Shown piece by piece: positions 45,793 through 46,410 of a stretch of 64,000 nt of DNA; position 1 is the first letter of the stretch, and each line of letters opens with the position of its first letter. Where the stretch lies: assembly GCA_003599755.1 (NCBI GenBank), contig QZJO01000013.1, positions 27,729 to 91,728 of the forward strand. Direction: 5' to 3'. Position numbers and translations under genes: made by a program. A model generated the notes under the pieces. The model was not told the DNA's origin. It did no database searches and saw nothing but the letters and a program-made list of their open reading frames with translations. Source of the stretch: Candidatus Parcubacteria bacterium (GTDB lineage Bacteria; Patescibacteriota; Minisyncoccia; Sungbacterales; SURF-37).

Positions 45793-45883
45793 GCCTCCGT
45801 CACCCCCTTCTGTGCACATTTTGCCGCCACATGACGGCTGCTCACACGTAGCGACTAGTATATAGCTCTTTATTGGGGAAAGT

Positions 45884-45916
45884 CAAGAGCGCCGCGCATC
45901 ATGCGCGGCGCTCTTG
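45884..45916. terminator. 16-bp-arm palindrome downstream of the tRNA-Pro locus
   Basis: CAAGAGCGCCGCGCAT-C-ATGCGCGGCGCTCTTG. Confidence 0.6.
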
Positions 45917-45931
45917 GTTTGCTTCGCTCAG

Positions 45932-45969
45932 TCGGGCTGCTGGGAATCGAACCCAGTCTACGAGTTCCA
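45932..45969 (-). pseudogene. 3' half of a split (outer) tRNA-Pro
   Basis: ACTCG-TAGA-CTGGG-TTCGATT-CCCAG-CAGCCCG-A; CAGCCCG pairs with CGGGCTG at 46196-46190. Confidence 0.8.
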
Positions 45970-46065
45970 GGGTGTAGTGTTGCGAGCGTATCCGCTGCGC
46001 GGATTCGTTCTCGCAACACCCGCGCAAACCAAAGACCTTTGCTTTGCGCCCCCTCGCCTCGCTTG

Positions 46066-46171
46066 CCCCGCACCAATTTCGGCAGTCGGGGCGCCGGGAA
46101 TCGAACCCGGTCTACAAGACCCCCAGCCTTGTGTACTGCCGTTATACTACGCCCCGAAATTTGGTGCGGGG
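46066..46171. mobile_element. CCCCGCACC...GGTGCGGGG inverted-repeat element (family C) enclosing tRNA-Pro(GGG)
   Basis: Arms CCCCGCACCAATTTCGG (46066-46082) and CCGAAATTTGGTGCGGGG (46154-46171). Confidence 0.7.
46086..46156 (-). tRNA. tRNA-Pro(GGG)
   Basis: CGGGGCG/CGCCCCG-A acceptor, CAAGG-CTGGGGG-TCTTG anticodon arm, CCGGG-TTCGATT-CCCGG; no encoded CCA. Confidence 0.93.
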
Positions 46172-46196
46172 TGTACTGCCGTTATACTACAGCCCG
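46172..46196 (-). pseudogene. 5' half of the split (outer) tRNA-Pro
   Basis: CGGGCTG-TAGTATAACGGCAGTACA; 46171-46190 identical to 46131-46150 of the inner tRNA. Confidence 0.8.
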
Positions 46197-46221
46197 TGTA
46201 TGCTGCTTGTGCCCCTCCGAT

Positions 46222-46410
46222 TTATCCGGCCTTTCGGTGCAAGGTCTTCAGGCAGCGCGTGCAGGCCTTCACCCGGCGGCCGGACGCCAAACGTACCCAC
46301 TGGAGGTTGGGGTACTTGCGCTCGGTTTTGGTAAGATTGTAGTGTCCGCGGAGAAGCTTCCGGGTACCGCCAATAATTGAGCTTTTGCCGCAGAGTGGAC
46401 AGGCGCGCAT
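46222..46410 (-). CDS. rpmB: 50S ribosomal protein L28
   Basis: MRACPLCGK...RKYPNLQ...VKACTRCLKT. Confidence 0.9.
   Translation of the reverse strand: MRACPLCGKSSIIGGTRKLLRGHYNLTKTERKYPNLQWVRLASGRRVKACTRCLKTLHRKAG

Follow-up and report, generated by a model that had tools for sequence, protein, structure and literature searches.

A 64,000-nt stretch of DNA from Candidatus Parcubacteria bacterium (GenBank assembly GCA_003599755.1, contig QZJO01000013.1, positions 27,729 to 91,728 of the forward strand), referred to here as the window (G000:C2:27729-91728, G000 being the window's own genome), contains an intact gene for a proline transfer RNA (tRNA), tRNA-Pro(GGG), that is enclosed in an inverted repeat and nested within the two separated halves of an older tRNA-Pro gene. 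This layout had been described in an earlier note made from the sequence alone, and all of its elements were found where that note had placed them. The inner tRNA-Pro(GGG) was probably placed in the older tRNA-Pro by a mobile cassette, small, hairpin-ended and non-autonomous, in which a spare of the interrupted gene is carried along. A wider proposal, to which we give about even chances, is that such cassettes are self-rescuing gene-replacement elements, in which hairpin cassettes moved by GIY-YIG nucleases invade the loops of essential stable-RNA genes (5S rRNA and tRNAs of at least 12 isotypes) across the candidate phyla radiation (CPR) and survive by bringing with them fresh, often foreign, copies of the genes that they kill. 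On the sequences compared here, insertion at the DNA level is the best-supported account, and the locus is one decayed member of a widespread CPR cassette family, which is unpublished and is defined here operationally.

The elements of the locus are read on the minus strand and are listed in Table 1. The remains of the older gene, designated as the shell, begin 25 nt after the stop codon of rpmB, which lies directly upstream. The 5′ fragment of the shell reads CGGGCTG-TA-GTAT-AACGGCA-GTAC-A (46196-46172), and its acceptor type is that of the plain tRNA-Pro genes in relatives. In a repeat search, 46171-46196 (26 nt) matched the 5′ end of the inner tRNA at 92% identity. The 5′ half delimited in the earlier note is present as a fragment, but its last C belongs to the arm, of which it is the first base. 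The 3′ fragment consists of the D-stem 3′ strand and an anticodon-region relic (CTACACCCTGGAACTCG), TAGA, the T arm CTGGG-TTCGATT-CCCAG, the acceptor strand CAGCCCG and A73. It had been given as 45969-45932 and is indeed present there, but its homology extends back to 45979. A 36-nt stretch of this piece is 86% identical to the inner 3′ end (repeat search), and over 31 nt the fragment matches the tRNA-Pro(CGG) gene of C13 at 96.8% identity. The repeat search also revealed a 10-nt direct repeat, (C/G)TACACCC, on both sides of the insert.

Between the two shell fragments, which lie 15 and 115 nt from the inner gene, one on each side, the arm pair is 14 nt long and 93% complementary with one bulged A (repeat search), the 3′ arm AAATTGGTGCGGGG itself occupying 46066-46079. 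The segment that follows this arm (CAAG plus the spacer), previously put at about 95 nt with two hairpins, measures 96 nt, and both hairpins were confirmed (repeat search arms 46022-46034/46037-46049 and 45977-45986/46010-46019). The spacer is located where the variable region of the shell would be. The distant acceptor strands of the shell, CGGGCTG and CAGCCCG, pair at 7/7 positions, as the earlier note had claimed. Its view that the locus is not a simple tandem duplication was also borne out: compared with the inner gene, the shell has compensated differences at acceptor pairs 5-68 and 6-67 (C-G, T-A versus G-C, C-G) and at the second pair of the T stem (T-A versus C-G). No anticodon stem-loop is left in the shell, in keeping with the disrupted outer anticodon arm described before. 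Folding of the 273-nt unit gave -133.9 kcal/mol (z = -6.6, 200 shuffles), and the predicted fold is a giant tRNA-like RNA in which the inner cloverleaf caps the arm helix.

The cassette family was searched for with the pattern CCCCGCACYAAA-N(75-105)-TTTRGTGCGGGG in the contigs of one genome per species. The result showed that the arm motif CCCCGCACYAAA...TTTRGTGCGGGG is present in 91 public stretches, mostly from CPR lineages, with a few in bins labelled Omnitrophota, Planctomycetota, Elusimicrobia or Ignavibacteria. The arms of the window, CCCCGCACCAAATTT/AAATTGGTGCGGGG, are one base (the bulged A) off the exact search pattern and flank the inner gene as the arms of the family do. Cargo was counted in the 80 stretches fetched of these 91. 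A tRNA was found between the arms in 55/80 stretches and the tRNAs belonged to 12 isotypes (Pro 15, Val 9, Met 6, Arg 6, Glu 4, Ile 4, Asp 3, Ala 2, Gly 2, Ser 2, Lys 1 and Leu 1), while the cargo of the other 25 was not a tRNA and was mostly A+T-rich. Among the 55 tRNA cassettes, the inner 5′ part was copied upstream in 29 and the inner 3′ part downstream in 37; at least one shell half was detected in 45 and both halves in 21, by a test that misses shells diverged from their own inner gene. The corresponding controls gave 0 and 2 with reversed flanks, and 3 and 0 in wrong-side searches. A tally of shell acceptor pairing by alignment to the inner gene was too noisy (18/55 fully mapped), and the half-detection counts were used instead. 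Some of the non-tRNA cargoes, about 85-100 nt long (L047, L054, L058, L063, L096 and L105), have a common motif like GCGCAAAAGCCGCCTNCGGC in either orientation; a small structured RNA and a module that binds a protein are candidates for what it represents.

The same tetranucleotides recur at the junctions. CAAG or CAGG follows the 3′ arm in 19/55 cassettes and TGAA in 8/55, and TTCA precedes the 5′ arm in 11/55; the window has CAAG. The pairs TTCA...CAAG and CTTG...TGAA are mutual reverse complements, implying that the cassette has an orientation of its own, independent of that of the tRNA. The insertion sites are anticodon loops or T loops, and 2-4 loop bases, including the anticodon, are often missing. 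A wider-cargo search, in which the same arms were allowed to enclose 150-450 nt, was made in 401 sampled genomes of the class; 7 genomes gave matches and five loci were inspected. Two of the five contain a 5S ribosomal RNA (rRNA) gene in a split 5S rRNA gene, adjoining the 23S end, and in another, three tRNA-Ala genes whose D arms are unlike one another are arranged concentrically; there each shell is joined by TTCA, the arms and CAAG, and both shells lack some anticodon bases (2-4 lost). The wider-cargo loci also hold tRNA-Leu. The nesting habit thus extends, in these loci, beyond tRNAs to 5S rRNA. The two 5S nests (L133:1501-1676 in G330 and L139:1501-1677 in G358) have CCCCGCAC arms and Rfam scores of 82 and 76 bits. 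In the window's own genome, (T/C)CCCGC arms are found on 4/45 tRNAs (Pro-GGG, Val-TAC, Leu-TAA and Thr-TGT); of these, the valine gene tRNA-Val(TAC) is plainly nested, its insert standing between TACA and CAGG, and shell remains are present at tRNA-Leu(TAA).

The rpmB-tRNA-Pro locus was compared with its relatives, a check that the earlier note had recommended, by searching 40 relatives and the window's own genome and inspecting 35 loci with ARAGORN. The results showed that four genomes of the same family (G011, G002, G004 and G010) have a plain tRNA-Pro(GGG) after rpmB, and that the acceptor of the plain gene in G010, CGGGCTG/CAGCCCG, is the acceptor of the window's shell. Shell fragments were read by eye at 18/29 distinct tRNA-Pro loci of relatives, covering all three isoacceptors; these 29 loci were picked by similarity to the query, and 18/29 is no frequency. 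A flanking inverted repeat of at least 10 nt was present at 12 of the 29. The state of the shell varies among relatives, some shells being clean and others decayed, and in L021 removal of two inserts gives CAAGG-CTGGGGG-TCTTG exactly. Small hairpins of the same kind also occur in the D, variable and T loops of relatives' shells. A second small palindrome, CCTGCCTGCCGGCAGGCAGG-like, was seen in shell D and T loops of several lineages (G000:C7:4855-5230, L046, L051, L107 and L113), and not in the working inner genes looked at.

No near-identical copy of the window cassette was found among the fetched loci, the best match being 85%. The inner gene is 94% identical over 72 nt to a plain gene of another family and 84-86% identical to the plain genes of the same family, and this closer match outside the family is a weak hint that the inner gene may be of foreign origin. 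Only two orthologous nested pairs among the fetched loci were usable for a comparison of rates. In L068/L112 the shells are about 80-85% identical compared to about 95% for the inner gene (estimates from alignment), and in the other pair, L046/L076, the shell of L076 has lost its T arm. Taken together, the comparative data support the earlier proposal that a palindromic element with its own tRNA inserted into a tRNA of the same isotype and replaced it, in that the same arms occur around 12 isotypes, mostly in shells of the same isotype, that nests of several layers and of 5S rRNA in 5S rRNA exist, and that plain genes follow rpmB in relatives of the same family.

The recurrence of the layout in independent genomes makes an error of assembly unlikely. 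Among public contigs from four DNA runs none spans the full locus, and most of the public-contig matches and apparent joints are ordinary tRNA-Pro genes of other organisms aligned to the two shell halves. A 302-nt contig from another study covers 46086-46196 (inner gene, arm and shell 5′ piece) with 5 differences, and neither proves nor disproves the assembly.

The genome (0.93 Mb, 13 contigs, 58-61% G+C) contains five small GIY-YIG open reading frames (ORFs; Pfam GIY-YIG 54-67 bits), in addition to a 581-aa GIY-YIG frame, which we take to be UvrC. Sister arms (CCCGTTAGAGAT) enclose 86-aa GIY-YIG nuclease genes in this genome. Two GIY-YIG ORFs of 86-99 aa (C2:12094-12294 and C3:6341-6541) lie between the arms TCCCGTTAGAGAT and ATCTCTAACGGGA, and both sit exactly at ATGA stop/start overlaps of host genes, suggesting that the element supplies the start codon of the downstream gene. 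This arm type, CCCCGTTAGAAAT / ATTTCTAACGGGG, also encloses tRNA-Pro cassettes in the relatives L022, L027, L032 and L033. Another ORF, encoding an 84-aa GIY-YIG protein (C10:118033-118245), lies between a tRNA-Asn 5′ fragment and an intact tRNA-Asn; this tRNA-Asn fragment (region G000:C10:117773-118505) bears a D-loop hairpin insert. In addition, this genome has short copies of the sister arms that are without cargo and are flanked by 4-nt repeats (TGCA, CCAG). A cargo-less CCCCGTTAGAAAC...GTTTCTAACGGGG hairpin element (G000:C1:254771-254870) has CCAG on both sides and stands at the start of a gene that, by eye, is presumably gyrB; the ATG inside the element may be the start of this adjoining gene.

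Relatives of the GIY-YIG protein are encoded in 324 stretches of metagenome contigs, of which the best 80 were examined. Arms of this type of at least 13 nt were counted manually in about 46-48 of these best 80, and 15 of the 80 lie within 40 nt of a tRNA gene, all 15 being without arms. In the loci with a tRNA after the ORF, the 5′ part of the tRNA was repeated upstream of the ORF in 8/12, by a threshold used without a control. The armed nuclease copies inspected are located in or between protein genes, none in tRNA genes. Among proteins of solved structure, the nearest are single-domain GIY-YIG proteins of UPF0213, which are weak matches. At the locus itself there is no GIY-YIG ORF of about 100 aa.

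The proposed course of events is as follows. A hairpin cassette with a complete tRNA-Pro(GGG) would have entered the resident tRNA-Pro gene after rpmB, moved in trans by a single-domain GIY-YIG nuclease (Ssn-like) that is predicted to recognise the hairpin. The landing sites would be the loop regions of stable-RNA genes, insertion would be tolerated only because the cargo restores function, and the homology provided by the shell halves would permit spread by recombination into intact copies. The cargo would then take over the function, whereas the resident gene would become a shell and decay; here, the shell would afterwards have lost its anticodon arm and gained the 96-nt two-hairpin segment. 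The unit and rpmB would share one transcript, from which RNase P together with 3′ processing would free the inner tRNA.

The earlier note had offered as an alternative that the outer tRNA is spliced from a precursor whose intron, of the archaeal bulge-helix-bulge or the bacterial group I type, contains the inner tRNA. Each 5′ length of 20-59 nt was joined to each 3′ length of 30-69 nt, and the 903 products of 66-95 nt were tested with ARAGORN. The result showed that none of the 903 single-interval joins yields a normal tRNA from the shell; only two of them were called as tRNA-Pro, and in these the anticodon stem contains two C.C mismatches and the loop, CCTGGAA, has C33 in place of the universal U33. 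With introns allowed, ARAGORN found only the inner gene at the locus. Neither EndA (PF01974) nor RtcB (PF01139) had a match in the genome (completeness 100; controls positive), and no Rfam match to a group I intron (Intron_gpI) was obtained at E <= 1 in 45880-46240; the insert is composed of a tRNA plus hairpins. The genome-wide isoacceptor check proposed in the earlier note was made with ARAGORN and showed that the 45 tRNA genes include Pro GGG (the inner gene, which is the only tRNA-Pro(GGG) gene of the genome), UGG (C7) and CGG (C13), all existing without the shell. The shell halves are equally near the GGG, UGG and CGG genes of relatives (49-52/55 positions). The shell is a tRNA-Pro whose halves no longer tell its former anticodon, and it is neither needed nor able to decode. 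Because there is no restorable anticodon arm, no match to EndA, RtcB or a group I intron and a full Pro set, splicing is unsupported and insertion plus replacement is supported. An intron would fit the location of the insert in the anticodon region and the seven loop bases that survive beside the insert in L021, L032 and L101; however, most shells elsewhere lack 2-4 anticodon bases, both shells of the three-layer tRNA-Ala nest among them, and inserts are found in T loops too. Splicing at the RNA level is, in our judgement, very improbable.

Several points weigh against a mobile cassette with a decaying shell. The acceptor, D and T arms of the shell are perfectly kept here though its anticodon region is destroyed. 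The shell 5′ half in L046/L076 is more conserved than the adjacent coding DNA, which could reflect constraint instead of decay, or co-transfer with the cassette. The Pro shells of L021, L032 and L101 keep all seven anticodon-loop bases, and clean excision would restore a tRNA. None of the five loci inspected, from the 7/401 genomes with 150-450-nt cargo, has a nuclease ORF inside exact CCCCGCAC-type arms, so that the nuclease link rests on the sister arm type. The steps of mobility were not observed, there being no filled and empty alleles in near-identical strains and no target duplication, and the model does not account for a cassette holding the very RNA gene that it enters. These points keep two alternatives alive, namely a shell that serves as a processing handle and spread by recombination only.

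In the recombination-only account, the arms are native leader-trailer processing stems and the nesting spreads only by homologous recombination or natural transformation between tRNA genes, with neither a dedicated nuclease nor transposition. The arms do extend the inner acceptor stem and also enclose 5S rRNA, the shell halves offer homology, and no nuclease gene was seen within CCCCGCAC-type arms. However, sister arms enclose nuclease genes, and also short cargo other than RNA genes, at sites outside RNA genes, for example at the boundaries of genes. Moreover, constant tetranucleotides stand at the junctions in either orientation, and 25/80 cassettes are without tRNA cargo. We regard this account as unlikely. 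It is also improbable that, after insertion at the DNA level, the shell was retained as a tRNA-like handle through which RNase P and 3′ processing excise the unit from the rpmB transcript or stabilise the precursor. Many shells are decayed or miss a half (both halves are detectable in 21/55, and the T arm is lost in L076), the shells of L068/L112 evolve faster than their inner genes, and in relatives of the same family the tRNA gene that follows rpmB is plain; what speaks for a handle is that the acceptor (7/7), T arm and D arm are perfect despite the ruined anticodon region, that the fold of the complete unit is that of a giant tRNA-like RNA (z = -6.6) and that the shell 5′ half is highly conserved in L046/L076. 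A local accident without any cassette, whether partial duplication and recombination involving the three paralogous tRNA-Pro genes or scars of the attL/attR type from a lost integrase-borne island, is quite improbable. Although the shell halves are as near the TGG and CGG genes as the inner gene, dozens of lineages show this arm motif with these junctions and this nesting, for 12 isotypes in all, and such recurrence largely refutes a local accident. Furthermore, none of the six in-frame ORFs between 43173 and 47722 matched an integrase or recombinase family, and the fragments lie on both sides in nested order, whereas an island would have a direct repeat of the 3′ end at its distant border.

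Insertion of a cassette that carries a spare gene resembles several known systems in part. Single-domain GIY-YIG Ssn nucleases cut a hairpin repeat in single-stranded DNA; as reported, the protein has roughly 100 aa, the genes are bracketed by 20-50-nt inverted repeats (NTS/SRM) that are oriented by an extra conserved flank, many orphan hairpin copies exist, and the authors note a resemblance to insertion sequences (Chenal et al., Nat Commun 2025, PMC11893778). Like the Ssn system, the present genome has, elsewhere than at the locus, small single-domain GIY-YIG genes between inverted repeats, as well as orphan hairpins. In contrast, the word tRNA has 0 occurrences in PMC11893778, and no RNA-gene cargo or nesting in a cognate gene is described there. 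With regard to the Ssn/SRM likeness, the locus could at most be a non-autonomous relative; the solved proteins nearest to those of the genome are of UPF0213.

The phage T4 protein SegB is reportedly a free-standing GIY-YIG homing endonuclease in a tRNA gene cluster. The likeness lies in a small GIY-YIG gene that adjoins tRNA genes and is said to be inherited by replacing neighbouring tRNA sequence. Unlike SegB, the present locus has no nuclease gene and is a hairpin-bounded unit with a complete spare tRNA in a broken target. Elements with tyrosine integrases and prophages insert into tRNA genes, rebuild the displaced 3′ part and leave one direct repeat kilobases away. As in these elements, tRNAs are the targets, function is restored by sequence that is brought in and a displaced tRNA fragment remains; unlike integrase islands, the 114-nt unit carries a whole gene, has fragments on both sides and has no integrase nearby. 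REP/REPIN-RAYT and IS200/IS605 are single-strand hairpin elements, with which the cassettes share short palindromes, constant flanking tetranucleotides, both orientations and many non-autonomous copies. In contrast to them, the genome has no Y1 transposase or RAYT, as the Y1 (HUH) transposase family PF01797 gave no match in it. We know of no REP/REPIN-RAYT or IS200/IS605 elements with RNA-gene cargo or nesting in RNA genes. Both groups are mentioned in PMC11893778. Interruptions of the anticodon loop, and also of non-canonical positions, are reported for archaeal tRNA genes that contain introns or are split and for bacterial tRNA genes with group I introns (PMC4090602 and PMC4033280). The tRNA gene studied here is likewise interrupted in the anticodon region. 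Unlike tRNA introns, which are removed by EndA plus a ligase or by self-splicing, it is without such machinery or motifs, the interrupted gene is dead and the insert is a working gene. A full-text literature search, with subscription journals outside its scope, found no description of a bacterial tRNA gene nested in its own kind. The closest known systems resemble the cassettes in part only, and in none of them is a whole spare RNA gene brought into the target.

If cassettes do replace their targets in this way, CPR tRNA and 5S rRNA genes would be not simply inherited but repeatedly overwritten in place by small selfish cassettes, giving Russian-doll nests and a horizontal turnover of the RNA genes of the translation apparatus. 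Mobile DNA would thereby have a new way of occupying an essential single-copy gene, namely by bringing a whole spare instead of splicing out or rebuilding an end. The annotation of tRNAs would be affected, as gene finders would be confused by shell fragments and hairpin inserts, and so would phylogenies built on tRNAs and estimates of how much horizontal transfer reduced genomes undergo. A broader biology would also be gained for single-domain GIY-YIG/hairpin systems, in which there is interest as programmable nucleases for single strands. The conserved arms offer a simple sequence handle for finding such events in metagenomes.

Table 1. Features of the nested tRNA-Pro locus, in window coordinates
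Feature	Position	Strand	Evidence
rpmB (ribosomal protein L28)	46222..46410	-	PF00830 Ribosomal_L28 29.6 bits, sole match in genome
Shell 5′ fragment (older tRNA-Pro): acceptor strand CGGGCTG, D arm, A26	46172..46196	-	sequence
5′ arm CCCCGCACCAAATTT of inverted repeat	46157..46171	-	repeat search
Inner intact tRNA-Pro(GGG)	46086..46156	-	ARAGORN; Rfam RF00005 56.3 bits
6-nt trailer CTGCCG, then 3′ arm AAATTGGTGCGGGG	46066..46085	-	sequence, repeat search
Constant junction tetranucleotide CAAG, directly after 3′ arm	46062..46065	-	cassette-family junction comparison
Two-hairpin spacer	45970..46061	-	repeat search; fold
Shell 3′ fragment	45932..45979	-	sequence; repeat search
Perfect 16-bp hairpin right after shell	45884..45916	-	repeat search

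The ORFs around the locus are an adenylate-kinase-like ORF, a Nudix ORF, a DksA-type ORF, one without a family, a peptidase M50 protein and S12. The 16-bp hairpin that follows the shell has no T run and was not scored as a terminator in a consensus scan; it is a possible candidate for the transcript end. In the genome's tRNA set, tRNA-Ile(TAT) is present, there are two CAT genes only, and no Thr(GGT) or Arg(TCT) was called, the missing calls reflecting either a gap in the assembly or unusual decoding. An ARAGORN call of tRNA-Val(tac) at 1397-1486 of the window (90 nt) was rejected as a false positive, having a poor structure, no Rfam match and a coding-like appearance by eye. Finally, hairpin 1 of the spacer (window 46006-46055) resembles a module in a tRNA-Thr/tRNA-Tyr spacer (G000:C1:71837-71886), with 38/50 nt alike; the hairpin module common to both spacers is NNNCAAAGC-AAAGGNC-TTTGNTTTGNNN, and the changes in its stem are compensated.

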